From a virus: a DNA stretch of 64,000 bases. The notes below the pieces were generated by a model. That model did no database searches, had not been told where the DNA came from, and saw only the letters and a program-made list of their open reading frames with translations. A program made the translations under genes and the position numbers. Shown one piece after another: positions 35,518-63,136 of the stretch. The stretch covers positions 1-64,000 of the IMG/VR virus record IMGVR_UViG_3300020190_000012; one strand, given 5' to 3'. Position 1 is the stretch's first letter, and every line of letters begins with the position of its first letter.

Positions 35518-36047
35518 TAGAGAAGACCCTCCAATTCATCTAGTTTTTTCTTCATATCGGATGCGTCCTTAGATTTGCCTTTTTTAGGCTCTATATTTGT
35601 GGAAAGGTTGGATGCCATGCGTGAAACAACTTTTTCATGTATGGCTATAAGGTTTTCGGCTTGCGGCTCAGATATTGATTTAATGACATCAACATTTTCA
35701 ACCTGTGAGGAGACATGAACAACCTGAGGGGCAGGCATGGAAGATAGCATTTTTTTTAACTCTACTAGTGATTCTGCAATTGCGGATATGGCCTTACCAT
35801 CATTCTCTTCTCTAACTATTTTTCTCAATGCGTCCATGTCTATGGCATTCTGACGACCATGGTTAGTATCTTTTGATACTACCCTTAGATATCCAGCAAC
35901 CACGGCCTTTTTTACTGATGGGCTTGCCTCGACAATTCTCCTGTCAGCAACACTGTCAAGATCTATAGACTGACTTGGAGATAGCACCACCTTCAGGTCT
36001 CCGAGTGACAAATGCTGCCTAGTTGTATTTACCACTAAAAACATCAT
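35517..36047 (-). CDS. Putative actin partner: N-terminal ~55-aa module plus coiled coil and basic C-terminal helix
   Basis: 1-nt overlap (TAATG) with the actin gene; C-terminal MKKKLDELEGLL. Confidence 0.6.
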   Translation of the reverse strand: MMFLVVNTTRQHLSLGDLKVVLSPSQSIDLDSVADRRIVEASPSVKKAVVAGYLRVVSKDTNHGRQNAIDMDALRKIVREENDGKAISAIAESLVELKKMLSSMPAPQVVHVSSQVENVDVIKSISEPQAENLIAIHEKVVSRMASNLSTNIEPKKGKSKDASDMKKKLDELEGLL

Positions 36048-36259
36048 CCGTGCAATCTGGTTCGAGGTAGAGGTTTGAAATTTTTTGATGGGTCTATAAT
36101 CATCGTCGAACTCTTTTTACACGATGGGCAAACCATGTGTATTGTGCCCTGCGAGAAGTTAATCTCCACATTGCCACGAGCCGCCGTACTAGAGAAGCAC
36201 GCTGGACACACCACTCTGAACACCTCATGCTCATGGGTCACCTCCTCTCTTTTAGGCAA
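36044..36259 (-). CDS. Small zinc-ribbon protein
   Basis: CPAC..CPSC; overlap-coupled. Confidence 0.65.
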   Translation of the reverse strand: MPKREEVTHEHEVFRVVCPACFSSTAARGNVEINFSQGTIHMVCPSCKKSSTMIIDPSKNFKPLPRTRLHG

Positions 36260-38522
36260 GGAACAAACTCCTTGCCAATTTCAACATGTAATCCCTTACA
36301 TCTTCGTAAGAACATCCTGCCTCTTTGAAAAATGGAACATCATCTATAAATGCCATTCTTTGCTCTCGAGCGCGTCTTGCCGTGCCAAGACCGCTATCTC
36401 GCCAACTCTTGATATCAGGTTCTTCTCCAATGAAGTTCATAAGTGCAACAGCTTCTTCATTGTTTATGATGACCGACTGGTTGAGTTGCCAAGCCAAGCC
36501 GGCAATCACTCTTGCAGCATTGTATTTATCTTTGTATCTATTTGTCGCCCTATCGAATGCTGCCACAAGAGCATTGTCTAACTTTTTCTGCTCTTGAGGA
36601 TCGGCATTTGTCAACGATGCTATCCATGCCGCAGGATTGAATATGCCGCCATCTTGCTTCAGTTTTTGGTATATCAACTGAACCTCATTAGGTCCACGAG
36701 CGGGAATGCGCTCAACAGTTCTGTTCGTATTGTCTTTCAACAACTGCATCATGCACTTAGCCATTTCTTCACTGTTGATGGCACCCTTGATCTCCTGCAC
36801 CTTATCTTCAAAAGGAAGACCAGAAATTCTTGGGGCCAATGTGTGCACAAGCACATATCTGCAGCGACGCTTAGCCTCTTCTTTTTTGGAAAGAGCTCTC
36901 GGTTGAGCCTGCTGAAGACTGTGAAGATCAGATCTTTCGAAATCATCAGGTGCAAAATTCGTCCAGTCCAACGGAGGATTAGCCCTATTTGCCCTGACAA
37001 TTGCAGTCAAAACCCTGATGCCCTCATTAATTTCACCACTTTCTGTGGTGATTACAATTTGAGCGTGATTGTGGTTGACATACGCTGTCTTCTTTCTACC
37101 AAACAGCGACTTCAGGTGGATAAGTGCAGGAATTGAATGGCCACGCTGCGCAACATCTATAAGCGCATCAAGCCCGTTGATGATCCTATTACGTGCGTTC
37201 GTTGCATCTTCGAGAGACTGCTGCAAAATATTTCTCATGGGCTCTACGGCCGCCTGTTGGCTCTTCATCTGCTCAGCACCAATCGCCTCAATGGAAAGTT
37301 TATCAAGTATGCTGCTCAAAGAGCCAATATGGGTGTCAAGTTTGATGGCGACATCATTCTTGAATCCTTCAAGAATTCTGATAGCCTTATCGTTGTATTG
37401 AGTAGGAGCCTGAGACTGAAGTTGCTCAATCCCACTATGAATGTTTGCAGCAAAGTCTTCGGAAGTTGTAGTTGCTGAACTATCCGGAACTACATCAAGA
37501 CCTCGTTTCTCTGGATCCACTTCTCCTAGAGCCCGAGCGGAGTCGTACTCATCCTGCGCGAACTCGTTAACTCCGAGTTCACGCCTACGCTTGTCAACCA
37601 CATATGCAAACATATGTGCAGTCGCATCTTCGTCGCCACCCTGTAGAAGATTAACAAGCCTGCACAGCAGCGTGATGCCAACAACATCAAAAGCAGATGA
37701 CGTTCCTGGCATCTGTGCAATAGTTCTGTTAGATACTGTCTGAACATTGGTCTTGCCAGACTCATTCAAAACACTTTGGACACGCTGTGGCATCTTCTCA
37801 CGATGACGATTAAAGAAACTATATACGAAGTTGCCCCTAGAGGCCTGAAAGTCAGAAATCTCTATGGCGTTTCTTCCGCCCTCAATCTCATCTAGGTATA
37901 CGGTATATGCTAGGTTTGATCTTTGCCTAAACCATTCAGCATTCAAACCATTCCTGACACATGCTGCACGAGCAGCACTTTGTTGGTTAACAAGAGCTGC
38001 CTTGCCAAATGCTGGCAAACCACCTTTGGATATCACGTCATTCAGGTGTGCGATGATGCTTAGCAGGTCATCTCCGCCTTCGGGGAACGTTGAACATGGA
38101 GACTCGTCCTGATTTACGCCTGGAACTGCTCTCATCTGCCTTGGGAGCACAATTCCATCCTGGACAATCTGGGCATCACCCTGATCCTGCATGTTCGCCT
38201 CGGGGGACTTCAACCACTCTTGCAAACATGTTAAACTTTCAGACAAAATATCTTGTGCTTCATCGGCAACACGACTGTCATCCTCGTATTCATTAATTTT
38301 TACATAAGCCTCCTCAGACAGGCGATTCAACTCCTCCCGCCGAACATCAACAGACCTATCAGCGTTATTGGCAGCCTGCTCCATGCTTGTGATCACGCCA
38401 GTTAGGTATGCATGTAATTCCCTGTTGCGACTATATATATAATTGAGTTTACGAGTCGCCGACTCGCAAGATCCAGCTGCGGTTTTTTGAAATTTCTGTG
38501 AAAACATGATGTCTTTTCCCAT
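36252..38522 (-). CDS. Large helical hypothetical protein, possibly an internal virion protein
   Basis: Long ORF; start probably 38522 or 38507 rather than 38600; FQKTAA near N-terminus. Confidence 0.55.
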   Translation of the reverse strand: MGKDIMFSQKFQKTAAGSCESATRKLNYIYSRNRELHAYLTGVITSMEQAANNADRSVDVRREELNRLSEEAYVKINEYEDDSRVADEAQDILSESLTCLQEWLKSPEANMQDQGDAQIVQDGIVLPRQMRAVPGVNQDESPCSTFPEGGDDLLSIIAHLNDVISKGGLPAFGKAALVNQQSAARAACVRNGLNAEWFRQRSNLAYTVYLDEIEGGRNAIEISDFQASRGNFVYSFFNRHREKMPQRVQSVLNESGKTNVQTVSNRTIAQMPGTSSAFDVVGITLLCRLVNLLQGGDEDATAHMFAYVVDKRRRELGVNEFAQDEYDSARALGEVDPEKRGLDVVPDSSATTTSEDFAANIHSGIEQLQSQAPTQYNDKAIRILEGFKNDVAIKLDTHIGSLSSILDKLSIEAIGAEQMKSQQAAVEPMRNILQQSLEDATNARNRIINGLDALIDVAQRGHSIPALIHLKSLFGRKKTAYVNHNHAQIVITTESGEINEGIRVLTAIVRANRANPPLDWTNFAPDDFERSDLHSLQQAQPRALSKKEEAKRRCRYVLVHTLAPRISGLPFEDKVQEIKGAINSEEMAKCMMQLLKDNTNRTVERIPARGPNEVQLIYQKLKQDGGIFNPAAWIASLTNADPQEQKKLDNALVAAFDRATNRYKDKYNAARVIAGLAWQLNQSVIINNEEAVALMNFIGEEPDIKSWRDSGLGTARRAREQRMAFIDDVPFFKEAGCSYEDVRDYMLKLARSLFLA

Positions 38523-38615
38523 AAATGGTATTTCTGACTTATCACGACCTATCCTTGTGAGGAGGTGTGAGGAGAACATGCGCCCCGCCCAACACCACAC
38601 GCCGCCACGGTGGTG

Positions 38616-39305
38616 TCAGTTTTTTTCCTTGTATTTGAGGTCTATCTGGGAAACAAGACCATGTCGCTGACAAGATTCTGGTGGGAATTCAAAATAACCC
38701 ACCCCGCCCAGGCCCTTGAGTCTTCTCAGGGCGTCTGTAAGGCCATTCCTAGACGACCTGCAGTCTAGGTCGCACTGAAATTCGTCCCCAGCAACAACTG
38801 CCTTAGATGACTTGCCAAGCCTGGTCAGGAATAGGTGCATCTGCTCGGGAGTGCTATTTTGAGCCTCGTCCATGATCATGAAAGTGTTTTCAAACGTGAC
38901 GCCACGCATGAAGGCAAGAGGTAGTATTTCAATCTGATCAGATGCCATCATTCTGCCAGCCGTGCTCTTACCAAGTATCTTCTCCATAATCATTCTGACC
39001 GGAGAAACAAAAGGATCAAACTTTTGCTCAAGAGACCCAGGAAGATATCCTAGCCTTTCACCCGCACTGACATAGGGACGCGTCAAGACAATTTTACTGA
39101 TTCTTTTTTCACTCAACATCCGCAGGGCCATACCAGTGGCAATGGTTGTCTTACCTGTTCCTGCCATTCCATATAACATAGTCACCGCGCTGTCCTCAAT
39201 AATTTTAATAGCCTTCTTCTGATGATCATCAAGTGGTTTGAATGCTATGTGGGGCCCAGAACGATTGTCCTCAACCAACTGCTTGCGCCTAGACTTGTTG
39301 CTCAT
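38616..39305 (-). CDS. phoH: PhoH-family ATPase
   Basis: GMAGTGKT Walker A, LTRP, GERLGYLPG, PLAFMRGVTF, MDEAQN, LTRLG, GDEFQCD, RH.LV. Confidence 0.95.
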   Translation of the reverse strand: MSNKSRRKQLVEDNRSGPHIAFKPLDDHQKKAIKIIEDSAVTMLYGMAGTGKTTIATGMALRMLSEKRISKIVLTRPYVSAGERLGYLPGSLEQKFDPFVSPVRMIMEKILGKSTAGRMMASDQIEILPLAFMRGVTFENTFMIMDEAQNSTPEQMHLFLTRLGKSSKAVVAGDEFQCDLDCRSSRNGLTDALRRLKGLGGVGYFEFPPESCQRHGLVSQIDLKYKEKN

Positions 39306-39727
39306 GTCGCCTTTCCTCCTAGCGTTAGAATTACAAAACCAGACGAACGAGAATCACGGCGGCACACAATACCGTCCGTGAGCATTGAGCCGTAGAAAGA
39401 GTCCAACTCTCCCATACGTGATACGATTACGTCCCAAACAGGCGAAGGGAGGCGGATACGCCTCCCTTCAAGTAACTGCAGTCTTATTTTTATTGGGTTA
39501 AAGTCTGTCAACGACTCAACCTGTACTAAAAAGTCGTCAAATTCATTAGCCAATTCTAACTGCCAAAAACCAGATTCGTCTCTTGAACGCCTCAAATAAT
39601 CTATCTGATCGTAGCCCATTGACTCTCGCAGATGAGCCAACTGCTCGGCATTGAGAAGACGGGTCAATCTGCAAAATTCTGGATATGATTCGAAAATGGG
39701 TACGTCTTGCGTCTTTTTTCGTTTCAT
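39302..39727 (-). CDS. Hypothetical protein
   Basis: Start likely MKRKK at 39727 (ATGA overlap). Confidence 0.55.
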   Translation of the reverse strand: MKRKKTQDVPIFESYPEFCRLTRLLNAEQLAHLRESMGYDQIDYLRRSRDESGFWQLELANEFDDFLVQVESLTDFNPIKIRLQLLEGRRIRLPSPVWDVIVSRMGELDSFYGSMLTDGIVCRRDSRSSGFVILTLGGKAT

Positions 39728-43266: not shown

Positions 43267-43869
43267 TTATAGCCTTATTTCGGCAGCGTTTCTGATCCCG
43301 CCGGGCAAAACATCATCGTCATCATCAGCTACCATATCATCACTATCTCTCCTACGCACAGAGCGTCGAGATTTCTTACTTGCTGCTTGAGCTTCTTTCT
43401 TGAGTTTCAGTTGCTCGTTGTGTGCCTGACATATGGCTGACAATTCCTGTCTAGACAACCTGATCAGACGACCTGATGATATTAAAGACAACACCTGGGC
43501 CGGAATGTCTCCATATTCTTTTTTAATCAAGGATAAAGACTTACCATCTGTTTTGCCATCAAACTTTAAAGGAGGCTTAAGATTGGTTAATATCAAGCAT
43601 CCATCCTTAGTCGAAGCTATAAGGTCTTTCTCTTGTGATGCCTGATGGGCAGAAGAAACAACGCCTGCAAACACAGGAAGAGAAACAGTCTGCGAAACAG
43701 AGTGATTCCCCAAGACCACATCTTTGAGAGTCATCAAACCACCATCAACCACGACTGGCACGTTCATCAGTTCGGGATGAACCACCACCCTATCAACGGG
43801 AAGAGAATAAACCTTTTCTCCCATAAACACAACCCTGTTAAAATCTCTGTCATAAAATGCTTTCATCAT
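43267..43869 (-). CDS. Hypothetical protein carrying the shared ~55-aa module
   Basis: STKDGCLILTNLKP..QVLSLISSGRLIRL; basic/acidic tail. Confidence 0.55.
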   Translation of the reverse strand: MMKAFYDRDFNRVVFMGEKVYSLPVDRVVVHPELMNVPVVVDGGLMTLKDVVLGNHSVSQTVSLPVFAGVVSSAHQASQEKDLIASTKDGCLILTNLKPPLKFDGKTDGKSLSLIKKEYGDIPAQVLSLISSGRLIRLSRQELSAICQAHNEQLKLKKEAQAASKKSRRSVRRRDSDDMVADDDDDVLPGGIRNAAEIRL

Positions 43870-45209
43870 CTTGTCACTAGGCCTTTGAATTGCGAAATAA
43901 CGGCGTCTGCAGAGCAGATATCAGTTAATTTTGATGCTGCCCTTAAAGCCATCAAATTTCTCTTTTTGTCAGATGCAGACCAACATGCTCTCATAGATTC
44001 TCCAAATCTTTGGATAAATTCTACACCAACTGTATCCGCCATAACCGTCCCATCCCATAAAATTGTGCCAGTTATGCCAGGCTTAATGGTGTTCTTATTA
44101 ACATCAACCAAAAAGGCTGAAGAATCATCGAGAAAATCGAGTTGACCGCCAAACCTTGGGGCAACTGAAGGTATGCCGCACATGGCGGCTTCTGCATAAG
44201 GAAGACAAAATCCCTCTCCTCGAGCAGCTAGCACGCATGCATCCACAGATCTGTACAATTTAGCAAGATCTGCTTCAGTAATATTTTTGGATATCCTGAC
44301 CACAAGGGGCGGATGCTTCTTGCCACACTTTGACACCAAATCAGAAACCGTGTTTGCGAATCGTTTTTGAGCATCTTCTCCGCGCTTATCTCTATGCGCC
44401 ACGATGAGACAGACATCATCTGATGGGTCAAATTCATTAAGAAATGACTCGATTACATTGGTTCCAACCTTTCTAGGGCTCATCCCGAATATCGTAAAGA
44501 ACTTGAAACTTGGTAGAGGATGTGAGAATTGATATTCTGCGCCTTTGGTGCAAAAAACACCGTCGTTAATGTGTGGGCTCAAGACTTTGGCATCAATTCC
44601 GTACTTTCTGAAAGTGTCACAGCAGAATTTGCTTACGCACCAAACCTTTTCATACTTCTTGGCAGAGGTCACAACAGCATCATTAAGGGTCTCTGATTCA
44701 ACAGTCGTATAGAGGACTCTAATGCCAGATTGGCCTGGCGAACCAAATGTAGGAACCACACTATGTATGTCAAGCATGCCTTGACATCTTGGCCTTATTG
44801 GTAATCCGCATCGTGCGTCTTCGTACAAAAGCTGAGGCTTACCAAGGTCTACTGGGTCAACGCTTACTGAAATGTTTTTTGCCGTAAGTACCCTAACCAA
44901 ACCTCTGTTCACCTTGCCATATCCTGAGTAGTCTAAAAATTGACCCCTGACAACGACATCATCAAACATGGCATCACCAGATGGCTTCTTCGCTTTCGAT
45001 GACATTTTTGCTAGCGCGACCTCTATGCCGTCGGTCTGATCGTGATCTACCACAACAACATAGCCCTTTGCAACCGCCGAACGAAGAGATGGCGCGGATC
45101 TCACCCGATCTGACGGTATCTCAAATTTATCACCATCATCACCAGCGGGGATGCGGTCATCCCATTCGGGAACATATACGGGTATACCAAGGGCGTTTCT
45201 TACGATCAT
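43866..45209 (-). CDS. GT4-like glycosyltransferase with N-terminal ~55-aa extra module
   Basis: DYSGYGKVNR, YTTVESE, VWCVSKF, PRKVG, LYRSVDACVLAARGEGFCLPYAEAAMCGIP (intact EX7E), GGQLDFL. Confidence 0.9.
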   Translation of the reverse strand: MIVRNALGIPVYVPEWDDRIPAGDDGDKFEIPSDRVRSAPSLRSAVAKGYVVVVDHDQTDGIEVALAKMSSKAKKPSGDAMFDDVVVRGQFLDYSGYGKVNRGLVRVLTAKNISVSVDPVDLGKPQLLYEDARCGLPIRPRCQGMLDIHSVVPTFGSPGQSGIRVLYTTVESETLNDAVVTSAKKYEKVWCVSKFCCDTFRKYGIDAKVLSPHINDGVFCTKGAEYQFSHPLPSFKFFTIFGMSPRKVGTNVIESFLNEFDPSDDVCLIVAHRDKRGEDAQKRFANTVSDLVSKCGKKHPPLVVRISKNITEADLAKLYRSVDACVLAARGEGFCLPYAEAAMCGIPSVAPRFGGQLDFLDDSSAFLVDVNKNTIKPGITGTILWDGTVMADTVGVEFIQRFGESMRACWSASDKKRNLMALRAASKLTDICSADAVISQFKGLVTR

Positions 45210-46771: not shown

Positions 46772-46807
46772 TAAAAAGAACTGCCCACCCCTTTCGGGGT
46801 GGGCAGT
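46772..46807 (-). terminator. Rho-independent terminator after major capsid gene
   Basis: 12-bp stem ACTGCCCACCCC-GAAA-GGGGTGGGCAGT followed by TCTTTTTA on the minus strand. Confidence 0.9.
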
Positions 46808-46833
46808 CGTGCTTCAAAATTCACCCGAACCTA

Positions 46834-47703
46834 TCAGGTGGTTGTAGCCTCCACGGTGATGACGGACACAGCGTAGTCGTTCATGACCACGATGCCGACT
46901 TCCTCGTAGATCACCCAACCAAGACGCAACTTCTTCGGATCATCAGCGGGAAGGACAGTGATGTCCTGGCGGATGGGGAAGGCGCCCACGGTGTCGGGAC
47001 TTGCAGTAACGATGACCTTGCTGTCATCGAGTTGGCTGGACACATGGATATCAGCCGTCCACAGGTGACCGTAAAGACCAGTGGTGAGGATCTCACGTGT
47101 GGTGGCCTCATCATAGAAGTCTTTACCGAAGCTGCGAACTGCCGAATAGGACTCAGGGTGCATGACCACCTTTGAGGCCACCAGATCGTGGGTCTCAATG
47201 TTCTTGTAGGCAGAGTTCAGAGACGCAGTCTCCAAAGTGCCGCTGTTGGTGATCTCGTTAGATGATGTAGTAGCAGCAATCAGAGCGTTGAAGATATTGC
47301 GATCCTCTTCCTTCTGGATTGCCTCTTTTGCCTTGATCTGGGCACGGTCAACGATGTAGAAGCGACGTGCTTTGATCTCGGACAAACGGATGGTGGGGTG
47401 TGCTGCGATCTCGAATGTGGGGACAAGAACTTCCTCACCCTCGGTGATCTGATCAGGCACTGCACCCTGACGGGCAACGACTACTGCCACGGAGGCAACA
47501 TCGCGCTCGTAGCGGGGAAGAGCGCCCTGTGGGAGCTCGTCCACCATCAGGAGCTTGCGACCGACGGCCTGGTACTCCAGGGAACGCCGAATCGGCTCCA
47601 CCATCGCCTGGGCAAGGGCAACGCGCCCCTCCTCAGTCGACAAGGCCTGTGCGATCACGGCCTCTTTCTCATCGTAAGTCAAACCATCTTTGTTGATGCT
47701 CAT
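46834..47703 (-). CDS. Major capsid protein (HK97 fold)
   Basis: EGRVALAQAMVEPIRRSLEYQAVGRKLLMVDELPQGA, VPTFEIA, IQKEED, VVMHP, LGWVIYEEVG; AGAAAGGA RBS before ATG 47703; strong codon bias; terminator follows. Confidence 0.92.
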   Translation of the reverse strand: MSINKDGLTYDEKEAVIAQALSTEEGRVALAQAMVEPIRRSLEYQAVGRKLLMVDELPQGALPRYERDVASVAVVVARQGAVPDQITEGEEVLVPTFEIAAHPTIRLSEIKARRFYIVDRAQIKAKEAIQKEEDRNIFNALIAATTSSNEITNSGTLETASLNSAYKNIETHDLVASKVVMHPESYSAVRSFGKDFYDEATTREILTTGLYGHLWTADIHVSSQLDDSKVIVTASPDTVGAFPIRQDITVLPADDPKKLRLGWVIYEEVGIVVMNDYAVSVITVEATTT

Positions 47704-47719
47704 TGTGTTTTTTCCTTTC

Positions 47720-47760
47720 TCCGACACCCCCTGATTCACGCATCAGGGTGGTAAGTCGGA
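47720..47760 (-). promoter_or_regulatory. Stem-loop just upstream of the capsid RBS
   Basis: TCCGAC/GTCGGA outer and CCCTGAT/ATCAGGG inner pairing. Confidence 0.45.
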
Positions 47761-48401: not shown

Positions 48402-51400
48402 TCACTTGAAGACCCGACGCAGTACGTTGGTCTCAGTCTGATCTGCCAACTCCACCTGCTGCTGCAGTCGGAACATGGACGAGATCTTGGACTTGAGATC
48501 TCCATACGCATTACGCTCACTCTTCTGCTCGGGGATCACAAAAGCCGTTTCTGACCCTGCCGAGGCCGTCTTCAGGCCCTTGGCGACGACACCCTCTGCG
48601 AACATTGCCTTCTCAAGGTCCACGAGCTGAGCCACCTTGTAGCCCATCAACTCTTTGGCTTTTGCAGGCAGACTGTCTGCAGAGATCATCCCTGCAGCAA
48701 CCATCTTGCCAGCAACCTTGAGAGCCAACTCGCTGGAATCTTCACCAGCCTTCTTCTTTGCATAGCCGCCAACTGGACCGGACTTACCCGATCCAACCTG
48801 GCCGCCTGTCATTAGATTCTGCTTCTCTGCACCGTCCTGACCGCCAACCGGTATGGAAGGCAGGCTCAGACCTGCAGACTCGTTACCCTCTGGAACTTCA
48901 AGTTCTCCCATGCCTTCAAGACCTTCAGAGGTGCCCACGTCGCCAAGATCTTCCTGGTTCTGCACCAACTCGGTCTTGAGACCAAGCTCAGAGGCAAGCT
49001 TGGCCAATGAATCGGAGAATGCAGCCTTCTGGTTATGAAGCTTGCCAGAGGCAGATTTACCTGCTCCTTGGACACCGCCAGTGGCCATATTGCCCTTCTC
49101 TCCCTTGATCTTGTCGCCACTGAAGCTAGGACCATCAACGGGAACCTTGGGCATGTCTGCATCGAAGCCTTCGCCGTGCTCTCTGCTGAGCGGCTTGCCG
49201 CCGTTCTCAACGACCTTTGGCGATTTCAGACCAGCCTTGCCCGTCATGACGGTACCAAGTTCTGGCTGCTTCTGTGCATGACCTATCTCGACAGCCTTCT
49301 CTCCTGCCTCCTTGGTCAGGGCAGATGCAAGACGTGATATGTCAAGTTCCAACTTGCCTACGCCAACAACTCTGCCACGACGGAGGGCCATGGCCTCCTT
49401 CTCAATGTCGAAGGTCTCGTTTGACTTGGATTTGGCATAATTTGGAGCTGTCTTTTCCATGACTGCATCTTTCTCTTCTGTTTCTCCATTCGGATTATCG
49501 TCAGAAGAGTCTTCGTCAGAAGAGTCTTCGTCAGAAGAGTCTTCGTCAGAAGAGTCTTCGTCTTCAACAGTAGGTGACACCTCGACTGACTCTTCTTCAT
49601 CCACGTCTTCGACATCGTCGATGTCGTCGACCTCAACGGAATCTTCAGGCACATCCGTGCCAACATCATCAGACATCTCAGCCCCCATGTCGACCTCTGT
49701 GTCCATATCACTCTCATCTTCACTCCAAGCCTTAGTTAGAGCCTTCTGTATCTGCTCGTCAATCTGCTCAAGAACTTCTGGGGTCACATCGAGAGTGACG
49801 GAAATGGTCTTTTTGTCACCAGATTCAGAATCATCCTCGCCATCGAATGGATCGGATTCTTCCGTTTCATCCTGCTGTGACAAGTCAGTCTCTCCGTCGC
49901 CATCTGCGAGATCATCGGCGAGATACTCCTCGTCCTCTGCATAGGCAGCTTTGATCATCTCACAAGCATTGGAAGCCTGCTTGAGACCCATGCCTTCGCG
50001 GACAAGGTCCTCTACGCACTCGCACATAGGATCCGGCTGCGCCCAAGATGAGGCAACCTTGTCAGCCACGATTGTGCTGTACACATTCGCACCGGCAAGT
50101 TTGCTGCACACGCAATCTGGAAGGCTGTTTCCACGGCAAGGACCGCTGAGCGCCACGGAATCAGCGCCATACCTCCTGGCGAGTTTTTCCACGCACTCAT
50201 TCATTGGGAATTCACCATGCATGGTGAATGCCTTCTTGAATGAGCCAATTGCAGTCTCATCTTCAGAAGCTATCTTGACCTGCTTTACGGCACCCTTGCT
50301 GAGGGCTTCGTTCAAAACTTCGGCCTTCTTGACAACAGACATGCCGTCGAATGTTGCACGATCAACGCCAACTTCATTCAGGGCAGAATTAATAGATGCA
50401 CGCTTACGGGCGCAGCTGCTGCATGATGCCTTCTTAAACTCTGGCACCCATTCCCACTGAGCATACACATCCTTAGGAGAGGTGGTCGACGCGGCAAGAC
50501 GAACCTTGTACATCTGACCAGAGTCCAAGCACATCCATGTTTCGTTGTCAAGTTTGACGGTATTTCTCTCGCCAGTGATTGGGCTCACAGATCCTAGAGC
50601 ACCCTTGCTGGCGATCTTCCTGAGTGTTTCTGGAGTGATGCGGGTGGATGCAGCAACAGGAGGAAGCCCTGGTGCCCCTAGGGGTGGCATGCCGGGTGGC
50701 AGTTCGGCGCCAATCCCGCCAAGACCCTTATCTGGCTCTGCAGGGTTGTCGCCGCCAACATCCTCTTTGTCAATATCTCCGTCAGTGATATTGTCAAGAA
50801 GAGATGCATCTGGAATAACCTTGATGGTGAATCCACTGCCGCAACCCGGGCCTTTGCACTGGCTCTTGCCGCCAGCAACATCAACATCCTGGTTGCCACA
50901 CACGACGCAAACCGCAGCTGGTGGCTTGGCCTTGCCGAGGGTGTCTGTGTCGAGACCAAGAGGGTCTGTTGGCGCCGAAGCGGGAGCTCCAGGCATACCA
51001 GCGGGGGCCCCTGGTGCTGGCGGAGCGCCAGTCAGCGCCTCTGCGCCAGGCATGCCGGGAGGCATGGCACCTGGAACCGCAACACCAGCACCCATGCCTG
51101 CTGGATTTAGGGCGCTGGGCATGGCGCCTCCAACTTGAGCCTTCTTCTCAAGTCGCTCAATCTCCTCAAGCAACTTGGCACGACGAGATATCCTGTCTTC
51201 TCGAGAATCATAAGTCTCAGAAGATGCGACCGCGACCTTTGTCTTGGGGGCTTTCTTCATAGTGCTCTCCACATCGGATGCAAACTTGTGGTATGCCTCT
51301 TCCTCTGCAGAAGTGAGCATTTTTGCCTCCTTGACCACTGCCTCAACAATGCCATTGGCATCGTCGAAATCTATTGACATCGGTACAACATCAACACCAG

Positions 51401-54062
51401 GGAAGCGACTAGAGATCATGCCCTGAGCAAACTTGGTGACCTCCGCTATAAAGTTAATCTTATCTGATGGGTCTGCTGAAATGTCCTCGCCAACAGTGCA
51501 GCAAACCTTGTAGAGACCATCTTCAGGACGGAAGGCCTGGCGGATCGCGTCCTCAAATGAGGCATCCTTTGCCAGGGTTTCAGAAGCATCAGTTGCCATC
51601 TTGGTGGCCTGCTCGACAGCTAGGTCATTGTTCGCGCAGTGGATGAACGCCTGGATGGCATCCTCGGCAGTGACATTCTTGGCATTATCTGCGATGGAGG
51701 CCAAAACAAGGTCGATGGGCTCGGCCATGAGACCTGCAGAAGCACCCTTGGTCATCTCAGAGTTTCTTTCGGCAACTTCACGACGCTGAGACACAGTCCA
51801 AGGGGCTGCATTAATAGAAACCATGAAGGCAGCCTTGGCATGTCTTGATGGCTTGGCTGATATGTACTGCGCAACCTTGGAGATGTCGACGGGATCTAGA
51901 CCATAGATTGCAATGCCATCAGCAATAGAACGGGTTGCAATCTTGACAAGGTCAACTGTACTTGCCTTCTTGGCCATCGATCCGAGTTGAGCCTCTGTAA
52001 TTGCAGTTGGATCGACCCACTTGTGATCCTTACGGAGAATGTCGAGTTGGGCAGACTGAACATGGTCTGTCCAGTCTGCTGGTATCTTGGCAAGGATCTC
52101 GCGGGTTGCATCACCCCACTGACCCTCTGTGATCGTTTCTGGGAAAGAGTTCCAACGTGCCATGAATCCGTTGGATCCGCTAGCTAGTTGCATCTCTGTC
52201 GTGCCTTCGGATGATCCAGACCTCACCTGCGGTGATGCACTAGACACATCTTTGAACGCAGGCTTGGATGCACCAAGACGGCTGTCTGACTCGATGATTT
52301 CGGTGTACTCCGCACCGGTACGTGCGCCCATGCCATTGCCTTCGACAAACTGCCCTTCGATTATGGTGGAAGGAGAGTTGTCGGTGCGGTTTGAAGCTGT
52401 TTTAACGGTGCGGTTGTTAATGTCCAATTCAGGCTCCTTACTAGAGTTGATGTTTTCTTGTTTTTCAAGGGATGCAAGGATGATGAGGGCTGCGCCTTCT
52501 GGATCTTCAGCGATTGCACTCCTCAAGTTATGAGGAAACGCGTCTGCAGATGATGCTCTGACGACACGACCGTCAACAACTTCTGTTATAAACGATTCGC
52601 CGTCAGAGTCGGCGGATATCACAACAGAACAGTTGGCTGACGCGACCTTTGCAATGATTTGGTTCTGTGCCAAAAAATCCTCCGAGGGGAAATACTCGCC
52701 ATCTTCCACGCGGATGGCAAGTCCCTTGCCTCTAATATTGTTTTTTTTCCAAATCTCCTCCCCAAAAGCTGACCTTGGAATAAAAGTTGGCTTGGTAACC
52801 CTGCCTATGTCGTCACCCACATCCTGAAAAGACGGGGTTCCCAAAGATGGGGGTCTTGGGGAGGGTTGCTGAGGCATAGACATTGGGGCCGCTGTTGCAG
52901 GCGCCATTGCAGATGGGGTGGTTTGTGATATCTTTCCACCATCGACAGGCGATGCTGGTGCCGATGTCCCCCTTGCCATCTGTTCAGAAGATGGAGATGG
53001 CAACTGTGCATAACCCATTTCTATAAGTTCATCTGTGGTTTTTTGCACATTCGACATGACCTTAACAAGATCGCTGACATATTCCATAGAAACTGCCTGT
53101 TTTTGTGCCATCATGGACCTGGCAACACGCTCAAGCAGGTTCATTGCTTCATTCAACTCTCCAATTTCTTGTCGACCTGCCACTTTTTTCATTCCGCAAA
53201 CCCCGTCCTTGCAGAATGATTCCTCTGCCACCTTGCTAAACCCCTCGTTTACAGCCCTGACCCTCTCAACAAGGCTAGCAATCTTTTTGCGGACGCCTTC
53301 GGGGTTGAGTATTTCTTGCACGAGGCAATCATGGCATGCTGGATTGACCACAAAACTATCTTCGATAAATTTGACACCAAAATTGTGTTCAAAAATTTGT
53401 TGATCTTTATGTGTGTGGATCTTCTTTTCGCCCTTTTTGCAACCGCAAACTGGACAGGGCTCGTCGCCAGCATTGGGAGACTCATGATACTTACAGACAT
53501 GATCGCCATTGAAGCGCTTCTTCTTGCGCTCTTTGATATGTGAGCAAAATTCTTTTGCAGTTGCAGCTCTGTGATGGCATATGCTGCAGCATGAGTACTG
53601 TACTTGACAGCCCATGGATGTGCCGTTCACGTATCCCTGCTCTATGCCCCTAGCAAGCCTAGGGAAGGCCACGCGGTCAACCATGTTAATTGTATATATA
53701 CCGCCAGTGGAATCGTCGTACCATGCGTGTACAACCTTGCCCCTTGCCTTCTCGATGTCGTCATTTTGGTGGTTGACAAAGACCGGAACCCCGATGAACG
53801 TTTTGGCGGCACGCTTTAACTCAGTCTCACTGAACCAGTCGCCGTTGTCATTGACCTCATTCTTCTTTATTGCAAATACCTTAACAAATAAATGATCGGG
53901 GTGTTCCTTGACGGCTGCAGTTATGTCGAATCCGTTCAGGTCAGTACCAACCTTGGCCGCCTGTTTCTGCAGTGCTTCCGTGTTAAACTCATCCCAATCC
54001 TCGGGAACATTAAGAGCAGTAACCTGCCTCGACCCTGAAATGGAAAACTTGCTTGGAATCAT
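48402..54062 (-). CDS. Prohead maturation protease fused to a very long scaffold/core region
   Basis: NDNGDWF..EL..TFIGVPVFVNH, RGKVV, GTSMGC, CSICHH, FIEDSFVVNPA protease domain; then coiled-coil, Pro/Gly-rich and acidic regions; lies between portal and MCP. Confidence 0.85.
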   Translation of the reverse strand: MIPSKFSISGSRQVTALNVPEDWDEFNTEALQKQAAKVGTDLNGFDITAAVKEHPDHLFVKVFAIKKNEVNDNGDWFSETELKRAAKTFIGVPVFVNHQNDDIEKARGKVVHAWYDDSTGGIYTINMVDRVAFPRLARGIEQGYVNGTSMGCQVQYSCCSICHHRAATAKEFCSHIKERKKKRFNGDHVCKYHESPNAGDEPCPVCGCKKGEKKIHTHKDQQIFEHNFGVKFIEDSFVVNPACHDCLVQEILNPEGVRKKIASLVERVRAVNEGFSKVAEESFCKDGVCGMKKVAGRQEIGELNEAMNLLERVARSMMAQKQAVSMEYVSDLVKVMSNVQKTTDELIEMGYAQLPSPSSEQMARGTSAPASPVDGGKISQTTPSAMAPATAAPMSMPQQPSPRPPSLGTPSFQDVGDDIGRVTKPTFIPRSAFGEEIWKKNNIRGKGLAIRVEDGEYFPSEDFLAQNQIIAKVASANCSVVISADSDGESFITEVVDGRVVRASSADAFPHNLRSAIAEDPEGAALIILASLEKQENINSSKEPELDINNRTVKTASNRTDNSPSTIIEGQFVEGNGMGARTGAEYTEIIESDSRLGASKPAFKDVSSASPQVRSGSSEGTTEMQLASGSNGFMARWNSFPETITEGQWGDATREILAKIPADWTDHVQSAQLDILRKDHKWVDPTAITEAQLGSMAKKASTVDLVKIATRSIADGIAIYGLDPVDISKVAQYISAKPSRHAKAAFMVSINAAPWTVSQRREVAERNSEMTKGASAGLMAEPIDLVLASIADNAKNVTAEDAIQAFIHCANNDLAVEQATKMATDASETLAKDASFEDAIRQAFRPEDGLYKVCCTVGEDISADPSDKINFIAEVTKFAQGMISSRFPGVDVVPMSIDFDDANGIVEAVVKEAKMLTSAEEEAYHKFASDVESTMKKAPKTKVAVASSETYDSREDRISRRAKLLEEIERLEKKAQVGGAMPSALNPAGMGAGVAVPGAMPPGMPGAEALTGAPPAPGAPAGMPGAPASAPTDPLGLDTDTLGKAKPPAAVCVVCGNQDVDVAGGKSQCKGPGCGSGFTIKVIPDASLLDNITDGDIDKEDVGGDNPAEPDKGLGGIGAELPPGMPPLGAPGLPPVAASTRITPETLRKIASKGALGSVSPITGERNTVKLDNETWMCLDSGQMYKVRLAASTTSPKDVYAQWEWVPEFKKASCSSCARKRASINSALNEVGVDRATFDGMSVVKKAEVLNEALSKGAVKQVKIASEDETAIGSFKKAFTMHGEFPMNECVEKLARRYGADSVALSGPCRGNSLPDCVCSKLAGANVYSTIVADKVASSWAQPDPMCECVEDLVREGMGLKQASNACEMIKAAYAEDEEYLADDLADGDGETDLSQQDETEESDPFDGEDDSESGDKKTISVTLDVTPEVLEQIDEQIQKALTKAWSEDESDMDTEVDMGAEMSDDVGTDVPEDSVEVDDIDDVEDVDEEESVEVSPTVEDEDSSDEDSSDEDSSDEDSSDDNPNGETEEKDAVMEKTAPNYAKSKSNETFDIEKEAMALRRGRVVGVGKLELDISRLASALTKEAGEKAVEIGHAQKQPELGTVMTGKAGLKSPKVVENGGKPLSREHGEGFDADMPKVPVDGPSFSGDKIKGEKGNMATGGVQGAGKSASGKLHNQKAAFSDSLAKLASELGLKTELVQNQEDLGDVGTSEGLEGMGELEVPEGNESAGLSLPSIPVGGQDGAEKQNLMTGGQVGSGKSGPVGGYAKKKAGEDSSELALKVAGKMVAAGMISADSLPAKAKELMGYKVAQLVDLEKAMFAEGVVAKGLKTASAGSETAFVIPEQKSERNAYGDLKSKISSMFRLQQQVELADQTETNVLRRVFK
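49501..49560 (-). repeat. 15-bp tandem repeat x4 encoding DEDSS units
   Basis: TCAGAAGAGTCTTCG repeated four times, in frame in the acidic scaffold region. Confidence 0.9.
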
Positions 54063-54472
54063 GCCCTCACTGTCCTCGGGATTCTTACATTAGCCAAATG
54101 GGTCAATGTATAGTTGAACTGATTCTTAGGATATGGTATTCTGTATTTATCTGAAAGGAAAGACAGGGCCGAAGCAATGTTAGTAAAATATTTTCCATAC
54201 GGGCTGTAGACTTTAGACTCAAATTTCATCCAGTTGGATGGCAACTTTTTGATACCTGCAAAAAATGCCTTCTTGAGATCTTTGGTTCTCGCTGGCGAGC
54301 ATACAACATAATAGTCTGAGTTGGTGGTGTAGTCGTGGCCTTGCCATCTGTGGTATGCCCCAGAACCAATTTCCCTCTCGTATCTCTTCTTGAGAGGCTC
54401 GGTACGCTCAGTGTATACCTCTTCCCAATTGATGTTACGGTCACGTATCCTGCGTGCTGAAATCTTCAGCAT
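54059..54472 (-). CDS. Hypothetical basic, aromatic-rich protein between portal and protease
   Basis: Start likely MLKISARR at 54472; ATGA overlap with protease gene. Confidence 0.6.
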   Translation of the reverse strand: MLKISARRIRDRNINWEEVYTERTEPLKKRYEREIGSGAYHRWQGHDYTTNSDYYVVCSPARTKDLKKAFFAGIKKLPSNWMKFESKVYSPYGKYFTNIASALSFLSDKYRIPYPKNQFNYTLTHLANVRIPRTVRA

Positions 54473-56654
54473 GGGATGCACCTGTTGGTAAGAAAATGTC
54501 GGCCACATCTGTGGAAATGACACGAGGCTCTCCATCAGATAAAGATGCCGAAGTTTTGCCCAAAATCCTCCGCTCTTCTATCGCTTCTCTAATATTTGAC
54601 ATCACAACTTGAGCAACTTCGTCCACCCGACTGTTGAGGGCACCCTCTTTTATCCTTATAACCCGCCAACCAAGTTGTGCAAGTTTCATGTCTCTTGCTC
54701 GGTCACGCTCAATGGCTTCGGGATCTGAATGCCACATTTCTCCATCTGCCTCCACATCAACTCCGATTTGAGGATATGCAAAATCTAGAAGGAATGGCTG
54801 TCTCTGACCTGGCATGTACTGCTGGAATTGTGCAAAAAGTGGGTACGGAACCGCAAGTTGGTTGAGGATCGATGCCAACTTCTGCTCCGGCTTTGTCAAA
54901 AATATCTTCGTAGGCTGTGGAGGTTTGGGCATATCTTTTGCCTTTGGCCCCTTGCCCTTCTTAAATATCTTTCCTGACAAAATGGATGCGGCTGCCGCCA
55001 TGGGCGGAGCACCAGGGTTGCCACCCATGGCAGGAATTGCCGATGGAGCACCACCAGGCGGAGACATCCCCAAATCCATCGGCGGTGCACCTCCGCCCAT
55101 GGGGGCTGGAGCAGGCGGCGCACCACCACCAGCACCTCCCAATCCGCCCATTATGCTTCCTAGGTCTCCGATTCCGCCGCCGCCACCGCCGCCACCAGGC
55201 TGTCCGCCAAGAACCTGACCTCCAGTACCCGCCATAACCTGTTCTTCCCTGATGCGTGCAACCTCAATATCAAAGTCTATATCAAATGTATCAAGCAACT
55301 TTTGCCTGCTGATAACCTGCTTGTCATACAACTGAATAATCTTGTTCAACGATTCAGAGTTGTCACGAAGACGAAGATCGTTCCATTTTATTCTTGGATA
55401 CAGCCATACAGTTTCGTTCAACTGCTTCGATTTTACTGTGTCAACAAAACCCTGCATTTGAGCAACGGGTAAGAATATGTTTCTTTCTGCCCACTGTGCC
55501 AACTCCATACGCCAGGTTTCAAGTCTTCTGATGAGGGTCTCCACGCCAACAGCAGCACCAGAATAAGCCTGCATCTCTCCGTTGAGCAAGGTCTGGTTGA
55601 GCATTAGACCGTCAAGCATCTCCTTGCCGACATATTCGAGCTGATTGCTTATATCGTGGATTTTGCCAGTTGCACCCTCCCAAGTCATCTCGAATGCATG
55701 GTGAGTAACAATGGTCAAATTTGGATCATTTGCCACTGCAGCAAGTTGAGCCTGCACATCTGCAATATCCATCTCATTTGCAGGGCGCTCGGCAGTGCCA
55801 ACCTTTACTATTCTTATTGGCAATATATGACGCTCTGCCACGATCCAGTTCGCTGTCATCAACTTGGTTTTGTATGCAATCGTCATGAAGAGTCGACGCA
55901 GCAATGACTCTCCATAAGTTCCATAAGGACTCCCCTTATGTCGCAAATGACTCACGCAGCGCGGACTAAGAGGTATGGCCTGCCCGGCGGCAACAAGGTC
56001 ACGAACCTGCGGAGATATCTTGTCATAGATATCCTTTGGCTTCTTCTGCTGCACCACTCTGCGTAGATCATCATCTGGCAACATGGCAATTGTTGGGTGG
56101 TCGGCAAGTTGCGTGTTTTGAACCTCAACGAAATCTGGATTGAGGATCATCAGTCTTTTGAATGTTCCGCCCGGATGGTTGCATATCGTGCCGTCAGGAA
56201 GGTTTGTCCTACCTCCGCACACTGGGCAGTCTATTTCCAAAAACACGAAAACATCACCAAGCAAAAAATATTCGTGCGATATCTTTCTGAACCAGTGATC
56301 AAGGTTGAGTTTTTCAACCATGTGCTCAAAATAGTTCAAGACCTTTCGATCTCTGCACTCCAGTTTGAATCCATTCATGGGGAATGTTGCATAGAAATCT
56401 ATACCACCAGCAGCCTTTGGCTCGTTTTCGTAATAGAAACGCGCCCACTGGTACACTTCCTTGCGTCTGCTTGCTATCTGCCAACTCTGCGGAGTGTGCA
56501 GAGGAGAGAAAAACATCGGCTGGGTGAATATGGTGGACACATTCCCACCAACATATTGAGCCGCCTTGGTCAGCGGCAGCGGAACTATAGTTCCGTTTGC
56601 ATATGTCTTGTTGTCCACCATCGATTCACTACTTGCGTTTTTCTTGGTTGCCAT
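54441..56654 (-). CDS. Portal protein with C-terminal DUF559/Vsr-like endonuclease domain
   Basis: WARFYYENEP..IDFY..FP, EYFLLGDVF, ILNPDFVEV, YGESLLRRLF, IRIVKVG portal motifs; Gly/Pro linker; then LDFAYP..VEADGEMWH..DRARD..L..LGWRVIRI. Confidence 0.85.
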   Translation of the reverse strand: MATKKNASSESMVDNKTYANGTIVPLPLTKAAQYVGGNVSTIFTQPMFFSPLHTPQSWQIASRRKEVYQWARFYYENEPKAAGGIDFYATFPMNGFKLECRDRKVLNYFEHMVEKLNLDHWFRKISHEYFLLGDVFVFLEIDCPVCGGRTNLPDGTICNHPGGTFKRLMILNPDFVEVQNTQLADHPTIAMLPDDDLRRVVQQKKPKDIYDKISPQVRDLVAAGQAIPLSPRCVSHLRHKGSPYGTYGESLLRRLFMTIAYKTKLMTANWIVAERHILPIRIVKVGTAERPANEMDIADVQAQLAAVANDPNLTIVTHHAFEMTWEGATGKIHDISNQLEYVGKEMLDGLMLNQTLLNGEMQAYSGAAVGVETLIRRLETWRMELAQWAERNIFLPVAQMQGFVDTVKSKQLNETVWLYPRIKWNDLRLRDNSESLNKIIQLYDKQVISRQKLLDTFDIDFDIEVARIREEQVMAGTGGQVLGGQPGGGGGGGGIGDLGSIMGGLGGAGGGAPPAPAPMGGGAPPMDLGMSPPGGAPSAIPAMGGNPGAPPMAAAASILSGKIFKKGKGPKAKDMPKPPQPTKIFLTKPEQKLASILNQLAVPYPLFAQFQQYMPGQRQPFLLDFAYPQIGVDVEADGEMWHSDPEAIERDRARDMKLAQLGWRVIRIKEGALNSRVDEVAQVVMSNIREAIEERRILGKTSASLSDGEPRVISTDVADIFLPTGASHAEDFSTQDT

Positions 56655-61171: not shown

Positions 61172-61382
61172 ACTCGGAGACACGAAAGCCCCCACGAACA
61201 AGACGATCTGCGAAGTCCTCGCACTCATTCTCGTCATCAAATTCTAGGCGATATCCAGATCCGTGACGAAAAACATCGGCCCCAACGCCGCGAGCCCGCC
61301 TAAGCGCCTCATCTAGACTCCAGGAGCGCTCAAAAGAACCTGAAGGTCTTGTGGGTCTGTCTTTCAGTATGCAAACTCTCAT
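61164..61382 (-). CDS. Small hypothetical protein
   Basis: 72 aa, overlap-coupled. Confidence 0.5.
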   Translation of the reverse strand: MRVCILKDRPTRPSGSFERSWSLDEALRRARGVGADVFRHGSGYRLEFDDENECEDFADRLVRGGFRVSEYE

Positions 61383-61741
61383 CGGCGTGCAATCCCAGTT
61401 TTGACTGTGTTCTTGATAGCAAAAACACAGTCGTCGTCATTCAGAATGACCGCTTCTAGAAGCCGCTTACCGTTTGCGGTAATCTTTATTGTTTCCCCAT
61501 GCCATTCTGCAAATCCCAAACTCTCGAGATTGATGAGTTCATCAGTTCTCAAACCAAACGGCCTTTTAAACGTAAGGGGCTCTATCCCAGCTTCTCCAGA
61601 CTTGAAAAGTGAATACAAAACCTTTGCCGCCTTGCCCTTAGGGTCGCCAAGTCCAGATATTGCAGACCCCGACCTCTCGCGCATGATGAAATCAAGTATA
61701 GAACTGTTTGCGGTTTTTAGATTCATCCCAAGTGTTTCCAA
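61379..61741 (-). CDS. Winged-helix-like small protein
   Basis: ELINLESLGFAE..IKITANGKRLL wing signature. Confidence 0.5.
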   Translation of the reverse strand: METLGMNLKTANSSILDFIMRERSGSAISGLGDPKGKAAKVLYSLFKSGEAGIEPLTFKRPFGLRTDELINLESLGFAEWHGETIKITANGKRLLEAVILNDDDCVFAIKNTVKTGIARR

Positions 61742-62604
61742 AGGTATTCCCTGTACTTGTACGGACTTTCATTCTTCGCATTATCTATAAGATATGGCTC
61801 TGTTGCCAACTCTCTCCAGTAGAATCCGGGTCTGAAACGAGGCTCATTATATGCCTCAGTCCAAGAGCGATATCTGTGTTGGCTCTTGCGAGCGATCGAA
61901 TCACCCTCAATGCTCTCCTCTATGTCCCTCCAGGGGATCACACGATCACCCATTGGAAGATCTAGGCGACCCCACGGGCCATCCATCACGGAAGCAATCT
62001 TTTTAGATAACGAAGCAGTGAACAACCTGTGCTTATACGAAAGGCGCGCAATCATGTACTCATGAAGAGATATTTTGGAAAGCAGCGCAGATATTTCCGA
62101 ACAAGCAGGAGTGGGAAGTTTTGCCACATCGAATGAAGCCATGAAGTTTCTTATGATTTCATGCTTCACCTGATCATTCAACCGATCCTTGGCTGACATG
62201 GTGCACAATCCTTCAAGAGCACATACCGCCATCCTTGAGCCGACTACAGAACACGAACCGGCAGAAGGAATAGATTCAAGCACGTTACAAAGTGCTGTCC
62301 AAAGATCTTCAAGCACAATGGCCAATTCATCAGCCCTCTTGGAAAGAGCTGGTTGATAATCTGAGGCAAGAACCTGCATCTGAATCTGTGGATCAAAAAC
62401 AACATCGACGCCAACCTTAACGCCGAGTCGTGCGAGTTCTATCTTTGCATGATCAGGACTTATTGTTGGAGTTGCCATCGCATTTTGCTCCCACCAGCGA
62501 ACTGGCATAGCCACTGTCATAGAGCAGAGTAAAATAACGGCACAATTTCTTGCGGTTTTTCGTCCTAAGATTCTTAAGTACACGCGTGAATTTGTCCGTT
62601 GCAA
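61723..62604 (-). CDS. Hypothetical protein (start uncertain, may be 62478)
   Basis: Long ORF; KKIASVMDGPWGRLDLPM..PW C-terminal segment. Confidence 0.55.
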   Translation of the reverse strand: MQRTNSRVYLRILGRKTARNCAVILLCSMTVAMPVRWWEQNAMATPTISPDHAKIELARLGVKVGVDVVFDPQIQMQVLASDYQPALSKRADELAIVLEDLWTALCNVLESIPSAGSCSVVGSRMAVCALEGLCTMSAKDRLNDQVKHEIIRNFMASFDVAKLPTPACSEISALLSKISLHEYMIARLSYKHRLFTASLSKKIASVMDGPWGRLDLPMGDRVIPWRDIEESIEGDSIARKSQHRYRSWTEAYNEPRFRPGFYWRELATEPYLIDNAKNESPYKYREYLWKHLG

Positions 62605-62614
62605 TTCTAACCAT

Positions 62615-63136
62615 TCAGCCTATCTCCGTGTTCATAATCCCAAATATGGAATCATCAACAACTGCTTCCTTGGATTTCTTAGTTCTAGACACTTTGCGCG
62701 TGACCTTCTTTTCTGACCGTGATGGCTTGTCTTTCTTTGCGATTTTCTGGTCACTGGCCGCATCGGAAGAAACTGAAGCCACCAAAGAAGAGCATGACAA
62801 ATGTCCAGCACTCACAAGTTTCATGGCAGTCTCTATGTTAGGATCAGACTTCTTCAAAATGAAACACTGCTTGGGAGCTAGTGTTCTCTTCAAAAAAGAG
62901 ATCGTTAGGCCGCCACTCTTGGCATTCGAGAACTCTACTTCGTCCTCGGATGTCTTACTAGATATATCTTCATTCGCAGAATCGAATGATATGTAGCCCT
63001 TCTTCTTCGCCCACAGTACACTTGGATGAAATGCAAATTCGTCTGGCAAATCAACAACAGTACCAGGCTTGAACTTATTCTTGATCGAAGACAAAACCAA
63101 TTCACCTTTTAGTGTTTCAGAAACTATTACTTTCAT
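62615..63136 (-). CDS. Protein with two copies of the shared ~55-aa module and a basic tail
   Basis: GELVLSSI..PGTVVDLP..HPSVLWAKKKGYISF and SNAKSGGLTISFL..LAPKQ..KLVSAGHLS. Confidence 0.6.
   Translation of the reverse strand: MKVIVSETLKGELVLSSIKNKFKPGTVVDLPDEFAFHPSVLWAKKKGYISFDSANEDISSKTSEDEVEFSNAKSGGLTISFLKRTLAPKQCFILKKSDPNIETAMKLVSAGHLSCSSLVASVSSDAASDQKIAKKDKPSRSEKKVTRKVSRTKKSKEAVVDDSIFGIMNTEIG

Follow-up and report, generated by a model that had tools for sequence, protein, structure and literature searches.

Portable sequence elements that sit on unrelated proteins and give them a common destination are familiar from the capsid-targeting sequences of bacteriophage T4 and from dockerin-type modules, both of which act as shared targeting or docking modules. 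Among adaptors of bacterial actins, ParR is a ribbon-helix-helix protein, and filament binding by a C-terminal peptide is typical of the ParR-ParM pair. AlpA of Corynebacterium prophage CGP3 is reported to bind its cargo and to interact with the actin AlpC (PMC4446434). The volactin family of actins was named in PMC10869688, and virion glycosylation of mycobacteriophages by glycosyltransferases that are encoded beside the capsid genes has been reported (Freeman et al. 2023, as cited in PMC12619734). In this article, we analyze a stretch of 64,000 nucleotides of viral DNA, positions 1 to 64,000 of IMG/VR record IMGVR_UViG_3300020190_000012 (the window), which opens a phage-like contig of 130,267 bp. 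We describe a domain of ~55 residues, referred to below as the module, which stands at the very start of three late proteins that are unrelated in all other respects, namely the partner of an actin-like protein (P0001), a glycosyltransferase (P0002) and a tandem-domain protein (P0003), the last of which carries it twice. Profile comparisons indicate that the four segments are very probably copies of one undescribed domain, and we propose, at a probability of roughly 0.4, that this domain acts as a protein-protein docking head.

The module is like the T4 targeting sequences and dockerins in that one portable element occurs on unrelated proteins, and it differs from them in that it is a folded domain of 55 residues, as judged by modeling, that matches no described family. 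The four copies are the following:

35868-36047, minus strand: module copy A, residues 1-60 of P0001
45036-45209, minus strand: module copy B, residues 1-58 of P0002
62975-63136, minus strand: module copy C1, residues 1-54 of P0003
62783-62947, minus strand: module copy C2, residues 64-118 of P0003

An earlier sequence-only reading of the window had claimed five similar segments and had interpreted them as a common docking tag that recruits different activities to one target such as the capsid surface. The segment strings that it quoted are all present on the minus strand in the genes that it named. Four of the five (those in P0001, P0002 and, twice, P0003) are homologous according to profile statistics; the fifth, in the protein P0004, is unsupported. 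Comparisons of single sequences with BLASTP give E = 7e-4 for P0001 and P0002 (12 of 31 residues identical), 0.037 for P0001 and P0003, and 1.2 for P0002 and P0003. When the segments are compared by phmmer with the 130 open reading frames (ORFs) of the genome, the N-termini of P0001 and P0002 are each other's top match (E = 0.075 and 0.013), and neither P0003 segment nor the P0004 segment has any match. The marginal or non-significant outcome of these comparisons within the window, together with the observation that the P0003 family profiles alone find nothing, is what one would expect if the similarity were due to chance or composition and the segments were unrelated.

Profiles lead to a different assessment. 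We gathered database relatives (11 of P0001, 13 of P0002 and 7 of P0003) and more distant orthologues from related contigs (a 68-kb record supplied L001 and L006, and a 164-kb record L002-L005). With the orthologues included, hhalign aligns copies A and B over 54 columns at P = 1.6e-8 and a probability of 95.5%, and the remaining pairs have P = 1e-4 (A-C1), 9.8e-5 (B-C1), 2.3e-4 (A-C2), 4.7e-4 (C1-C2) and 6.8e-3 (B-C2). All six pairs align in the identical register, a single register holds across all 18 aligned segments, and the mutual significance for which the sequence-only reading had called is borne out in every pair, with 0 of 50 column shuffles at the observed score. Five expanded families were then compared, i.e., partner-type, coiled-coil partner-type, glycosyltransferase, tandem copy 1 and tandem copy 2. 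All ten pairs have probabilities of 93.8-98.6% and P values from 1.7e-7 to 9.4e-16 over 46-58 columns (family A versus the others 2e-8 to 4.9e-12, the latter for A-C2; family B versus the others 1.7e-7 to 3.4e-10; C1-C2 9.4e-16), values that are possibly inflated because the profile used to select their members had been built from the families together. In the corresponding controls, reversed profiles give P of at least 0.005 and none of 20 shuffles is at the observed score for any pair.

A less circular test consists of leaving out one family at a time and searching the 130 ORFs of the genome with what remains. The omitted protein is the best non-training match in each case (E = 8.7e-9 for P0001, 7.6e-6 for P0003 and 0.013 for P0002), the next unrelated ORF having E of at least 0.15. 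In a set of 14 sequences, a profile made without glycosyltransferases recovers other members of the P0002 family at E = 5.9e-8 to 1.4e-3. No further module copies were found in the 130-kb genome, where the next ORF has E = 0.23-0.34. Given the full-length register of the profile-profile matches, the behavior of the reversed and shuffled controls, the success of the leave-one-out searches and the predicted topology common to the two copies in P0003, we consider chance similarity extremely improbable.

The claimed fifth copy is internal to a protein encoded directly after the glycosyltransferase:

43267-43869, minus strand: P0004, follows P0002
about 43444-43608, minus strand: claimed fifth copy, residues ~88-142 of P0004, unsupported as a module

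Here only 9-17 columns align, corresponding to a helix-strand motif LIxSGxL. With six orthologues, hhalign gives P = 0.011, and against the enlarged profile P = 0.0068, with probabilities of 3.7-5.6%; the hidden Markov model search gives E = 3.3. Against single family profiles, the score is reached by 8, 0, 29 and 2 of 50 shuffles, and BLASTP of P0001 versus P0004 finds nothing at the claimed place. Of the proposed common tag there remains a portable module on three late proteins, P0004 not being a demonstrable carrier. The P0004 gene overlaps the stop codon of P0002 by 4 nt, and every related locus (L001, L002/L003, L008, L009 and L010) preserves the two genes as a pair. Conservation within P0004 is seen in a central block and at the C-terminus, ...NA..IR(L/I), and the protein has a tail rich in Arg and Asp; it may be a partner of the module-bearing glycosyltransferase.

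Modeling of P0003 with AlphaFold, using the alignment of its family, yields two confident domains of the same topology (b-b-b-b-a-b), so that the presence of two copies in this protein is supported by both model and profile. In C1 the strands are at residues 2-5, 13-15, 20-22 and 27-29, followed by a helix at 32-45 and a strand at 49-51, with values of the predicted local distance difference test (pLDDT) of 84-90 in ten-residue blocks; in C2 the strands are at 66-71, 77-79, 84-86 and 91-95, the helix at 101-109 and the last strand at 113-115, with block values of 79-94. The module is thus, as modeled, a self-folding domain of ~55 residues composed of four short strands, a helix and a strand.

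No family corresponding to the module was found in Pfam or PHROGs with whole proteins, 10 divergent relatives or 10 isolated segments, and the best match in a profile search of PDB sequences has E = 0.39. Foldseek with the P0003 model gives no match at E <= 0.001 in PDB or BFVD; its best PDB rows are the GINS and ribosomal L9 N-domains (E = 0.15-2, not significant) and its best BFVD rows are small uncharacterized phage proteins (E = 0.009-0.1). Feature scores in the ESM Atlas are 0.78-0.84, under the usable level, and the structural neighbors found there, which include viral glycosyltransferases and a cluster labeled Packaging_FI, are leads only, with template modeling (TM) scores of 0.34-0.47 that are all under the bar. 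The order of elements resembles an SH3-like small beta-barrel with an enlarged helix; such a barrel is recognized by five strands, the last two of which are separated by a short helix, together with a significant structural match, and the tandem SH3 structure 6b25 has only E = 1.0 in Foldseek. Two further candidates were rejected. Lambda gpFI (Pfam PF14000, Packaging_FI) has no Pfam match with 10 module segments even at E <= 10 and an Atlas TM score of 0.35, under the bar; DUF2635 has no Pfam match, and the BFVD protein so named ranks 22 with E = 0.11. The literature searched yielded no account of the domain or of the partner family. By the measure of these searches, the domain family is previously undescribed.

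The proteins that carry the module, and the actin encoded next to one of them, are listed here:

35517-36047, minus strand: P0001, actin partner, 176 residues
34357-35517, minus strand: P0005, actin-like ATPase of the volactin family (Pfam PF25216)
43866-45209, minus strand: P0002, 447 residues, consisting of the module, a linker of ~27 residues and a GT4-type (GT-B) glycosyltransferase domain
62615-63136, minus strand: P0003, 173 residues, encoded between the terminase and the portal

P0001 consists of the N-terminal module, a variable helical linker, a conserved helix L..IH.R.V.R and a C-terminus ...LDELEGLL. Its stop codon overlaps the start of the co-oriented actin gene by 1 nt (TAATG), and the two genes are read as translationally coupled. 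P0005 matches the Volactin family PF25216 with E = 2.9e-57 and 195 bits (cut-off 35) over profile positions 2-321 of 321. Volactin, the cell-shape actin of Haloferax volcanii, is in contrast a cellular archaeal protein, and the module is no part of it; among the matches listed, no volactin literature concerns phages. The actin gene follows the partner gene in all ten assessable loci (the window, L001, L002, L007, L008, L009, L010, L013, L014 and L028). Three loci that end before the downstream gene (L011, L012 and L029) are excluded from this count, and L028 repeats the arrangement of L013 and is not an independent locus. The partners at L013, L014 and L028 belong to a divergent branch, L013 and L014 being among the relatives that are 22-40% identical to P0001, and the adjacency persists to ~25% partner identity.

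Several side observations concern these loci. L028, a 7.6-kb contig from a metagenome-assembled genome (MAG) of an Asgard archaeon, and L013, a 548-kb viral record, are organized alike, with the partner, three small ORFs, the actin and neck genes in one arrangement, and the MAG contig probably derives from a huge phage and was mis-binned, as opposed to being archaeal DNA. MAG contigs with partner-like genes were set aside as evidence of the host, the contigs being short (7.6 and 3.7 kb). LR745208.1, a 485-kb uncultured phage with an actin ~27-28% identical, has an ORF of 207 residues overlapping the actin start (L027, 4325-4948, plus strand), whose beginning looks module-like by eye and is not significant (E = 0.22-0.73). 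No module was found in LR756511, a huge phage with an actin ~28% identical.

Co-folding of P0005 with P0001 used the actin and partner alignments in three runs with 3 controls. It gave weak support, with scores of 0.61, 0.46 and 0.59 (median interaction prediction score from aligned errors, ipSAE, 0.59) compared to 0.00 for the best control; the runs share at least 74% of contacts, and the pLDDT of the partner is at least 61. The mark applied is reached by 58 of 80 solved complexes and by 2 of 110 mismatches, 7 of those 80 complexes and both passing mismatches being at 0.60 or below. Because the co-fold coincides with the conserved adjacency, P0001 likely binds the actin, and the term "actin partner" used by the sequence-only reading is justified in so far as the gene is tied to that of an actin. 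One may then ask whether the module itself is the actin-binding element, in which case it would bring the glycosyltransferase and the tandem protein to the filament of the phage actin. No other part of the actin partner is as conserved (88% mean identity for the module within the close partner family versus 61% for the remainder of the protein), the actin is present in each of the three genomes with the full set of carriers (the window's own, G001 and G002), and the co-fold leaves the binding end unspecified. The partner family nevertheless has a conserved peptide at its extreme C-terminus, which is the more typical filament-binding element, and we regard actin binding by the module as very improbable.

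The arrangement of P0001 and P0005 is similar to AlpA-AlpC and ParR-ParM in that a small adaptor gene lies directly upstream of, and co-oriented with, a phage actin-like gene. It differs in several respects. AlpA and ParR bind DNA sites beside their own operon, whereas here the partner and actin genes are packed with no intergenic region, and no centromere-like repeats were found near them (positions 33500-39500; repeat families there do not exceed 16 nt or 2 copies). The N-terminal domain is beta-rich, as modeled for its homologue in P0003, and not ribbon-helix-helix, the genes are located among head and neck genes, and the actin belongs to the volactin family. A DNA-binding N-terminal domain with cognate repeats, by which an adaptor of the ParR/AlpA type would be recognized, is thus not what P0001 has.

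The same comparison bears on the possibility that the module binds nucleic acid, with the partner as a link between phage DNA and actin, the Lys-rich tandem protein as a DNA-binding protein close to the packaging genes and DNA as the substrate of the glycosyltransferase. AlpA, a known actin adaptor, binds DNA (PMC4446434), and DNA-modifying phage glycosyltransferases exist (PMC12619734). The tandem-type proteins have long Lys-rich tails, P0003 is encoded two genes away from the terminase, and the weak structural neighbors mentioned above (ribosomal L9 N-domain and GINS) point the same way. On the other hand, the modules are not basic (net charges of about +2, -4, +2 and +1), the modeled domain contains no ribbon-helix-helix or helix-turn-helix, the repeats expected of a DNA-binding adaptor are missing near the partner and actin genes, and the carriers are encoded in the structural block rather than the replication block. 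We therefore consider nucleic-acid binding distinctly improbable.

The glycosyltransferase domain of P0002 is recognized by Pfam PF13692 (32 bits, cut-off 27) and PF00534 (30.4 bits, cut-off 26.4) and by phrog_2170 (E = 5.7e-15). E-x7-E is a motif of GT4/GT-B glycosyltransferases, and the corresponding residues E332 and E340 are invariant in 10 sequences. The module is retained in relatives only 29-31% identical (P0024-26) and missing from more distant glycosyltransferases of 358-671 residues (P0027-30); the fusion is confined to this lineage. In L001, L002, L008, L009, L010 and L011, the module-bearing glycosyltransferase lies ~9 kb upstream of the partner. As in the mycobacteriophages, the glycosyltransferase gene is close to the major capsid gene in the structural block, and a second such gene, which has no module, is near the tail tube gene. 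The two cases differ in that the accessible text of PMC12619734 mentions no N-terminal docking domain, and in that glycosylation of the virion is here putative.

In P0003, the two tandem modules are followed by a disordered Lys/Ser-rich tail and a conserved C-terminus IFG(M/L)MNTE(I/V). A profile of the 18 segments searched against 1.84 billion representative proteins (clusters at 50% identity) detects 59 at E <= 1e-3, of which about 51 are credible members:

partner-like, 23: 113-211 residues, single N-terminal module, helix L..IH.R.V.R, C-terminus ...ELEGLL or a close variant
coiled-coil partner-like, 4: longer coiled-coil proteins, C-terminus ...ADLLxDI
tandem-type, 20: two modules, long Lys/Ser/acidic tail, C-terminus ...FVD.N.EV or repeated FVDQEQ...HP.LK
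glycosyltransferase fusions, 2: one of them a fragment
other small proteins, 2
judged spurious, 8: long repeat proteins (sequences of five not inspected)

The partner and tandem families are widespread in uncultured large phages, and both are undescribed and tether-like. Each starts with one or two modules, continues with a linker that is variable or disordered, and ends in a short conserved peptide (...ELEGLL in the former, ...FVD.N.EV in the latter). Whole records searched with the module profile yield four copies in the 68-kb relative and as many in the 164-kb relative (one in the partner, one in the glycosyltransferase and two in the tandem protein). In the 548-kb phage (L013, rated complete), the same search detects the partner copy only, plus a weak match at E = 0.14; this phage has a partner-type module and actin, with neither a glycosyltransferase nor a tandem carrier. 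The whole-record search of a 103-kb record (L014) is empty, yet the local profile detects its partner (E = 2.8e-12). Scans of viral contigs and genome contigs gave no loci of tandem-type relatives, and tblastn of the tandem-type proteins P0054 and P0074 against 50,697 phage records found nothing.

These data are relevant to another interpretation, namely that the module is a self-association (dimerization) domain with no shared external target, where the single-copy carriers form homodimers and the tandem protein is a covalent pseudo-dimer. None of the 20 tandem-type representatives lacks the duplication, conservation of surface residues does not extend from one family to another, and the 548-kb phage shows that no hetero-partner among the three proteins is needed. 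However, self-association leaves the lineage-specific fusion to an enzyme in the head-gene block unexplained, and the high conservation of the partner module fits an external conserved ligand at least equally well. We consider self-association unlikely.

In the region of the window studied, all module carriers are within one long minus-strand late-gene block, which is composed as follows:

genome positions 64278-66164, minus strand: large terminase, heading the late block
between the terminase and P0003, minus strand: an ORF of 255 residues and an ORF of 148 residues
between P0003 and the portal, minus strand: about ten ORFs with no function assigned
54441-56654, minus strand: portal (phrog_16240, E = 2.1e-40)
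48402-54062, minus strand: ORF of 1886 residues, between the portal and capsid genes
46834-47739, minus strand: major capsid protein (phrog_2522, E = 2.8e-66)
between a hairpin after the capsid gene and P0002: two plus-strand ORFs
after P0002, all minus strand and in this order: P0004, subtilase, PhoH, a protein of 782 residues (36252-38600), a zinc-ribbon-like ORF of 71 residues, P0001
41792-42592, minus strand: subtilase-family gene (Peptidase_S8, E = 1.2e-9)
after P0001, in this order: actin, Mu gp36-like protein (33632-34357), second glycosyltransferase, tail tube
31382-32485, minus strand: second glycosyltransferase-like gene (weak match to Glyco_trans_4_4, E = 1.5e-4, under the cut-off)
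29951-30952, minus strand: tail tube

Some of these features deserve a brief comment in their own right. The portal is a portal-nuclease fusion with a C-terminal endonuclease-like domain (residues ~588-693) that matches Pfam REase_MTES_1575 and DUF559 and a PHROG HNH endonuclease. The 1886-residue ORF, without a match in Pfam, is richer in GC than its surroundings (0.49-0.54 compared to ~0.45). The hairpin directly after the major capsid gene (46779-46808, minus strand) is strong and terminator-like, with a 13-bp stem containing 9 G-C pairs followed by a run of T. A subtilase is an unusual type of protease for a position within a head-gene block. Outside the window, at the end of the contig (genome ~130150-130267), a 24-nt unit is repeated head to tail at least 4 times after a palindromic, GC-rich segment; the array could be a genome terminus or an assembly artifact.

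We return to the proposal that the module acts as a protein-protein docking head. Because the same domain occurs on three late proteins, the three carriers may share a binding partner through it, and one docking target, e.g., the capsid, is plausible. By analogy with ParR-ParM and AlpA-AlpC, the C-terminal peptide of the actin partner would grip the actin filament and the module would hold the cargo. The glycosyltransferase would have acquired the same kind of docking head, and this would direct the enzyme to a late-infection structure identical or related to that of the partner, most plausibly the assembling head of the phage. In favor of the proposal are the breadth of the family, the tie of the partner to the actin, the late-gene setting, the 88% versus 61% identity that points to selection on the partner module, and the conserved spacing of ~9 kb between the module-bearing glycosyltransferase and the partner.

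A number of points weigh against this proposal or against the evidence beneath it. Gly52 alone is invariant across the families, and most of the positions that they share are of a hydrophobic or structural kind, so that a common binding surface is not evident. The IDLD motif of the partner family has no counterpart in the other families, which, like the single invariant residue, speaks against one target for all. Within the glycosyltransferase family, conservation of the module does not exceed that of the enzyme (46% versus 52% identity). The co-fold is weak and gives no interface, and the end of P0001 that would touch actin is assigned by analogy. The AlphaFold model of P0001 is poor (mean pLDDT 46.8, N-terminus under 50); since this model failed, the fold of the copies in P0001 and P0002 is taken from homology. 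Finally, there is the possible inflation of the expanded-family P values, by which the hhalign comparisons with orthologues and the leave-one-out searches are less affected.

A more far-reaching version of the docking proposal would have volactin-type filaments move or position heads late in infection, the module being a head-docking tag that would lead the filament adaptor, a capsid-glycosylating enzyme and a tandem tether to one and the same capsid surface, so that transport and virion glycosylation would form one assembly line; we consider this quite unlikely. Whatever its function, the module defines an undescribed domain family along with two undescribed tether-like protein families of uncultured large phages. 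If it is indeed a docking head, this 55-residue domain used as bait would provide a direct handle on the cargo of phage volactin-type filaments, and it would show how a virion-modifying enzyme gets aimed at its substrate.

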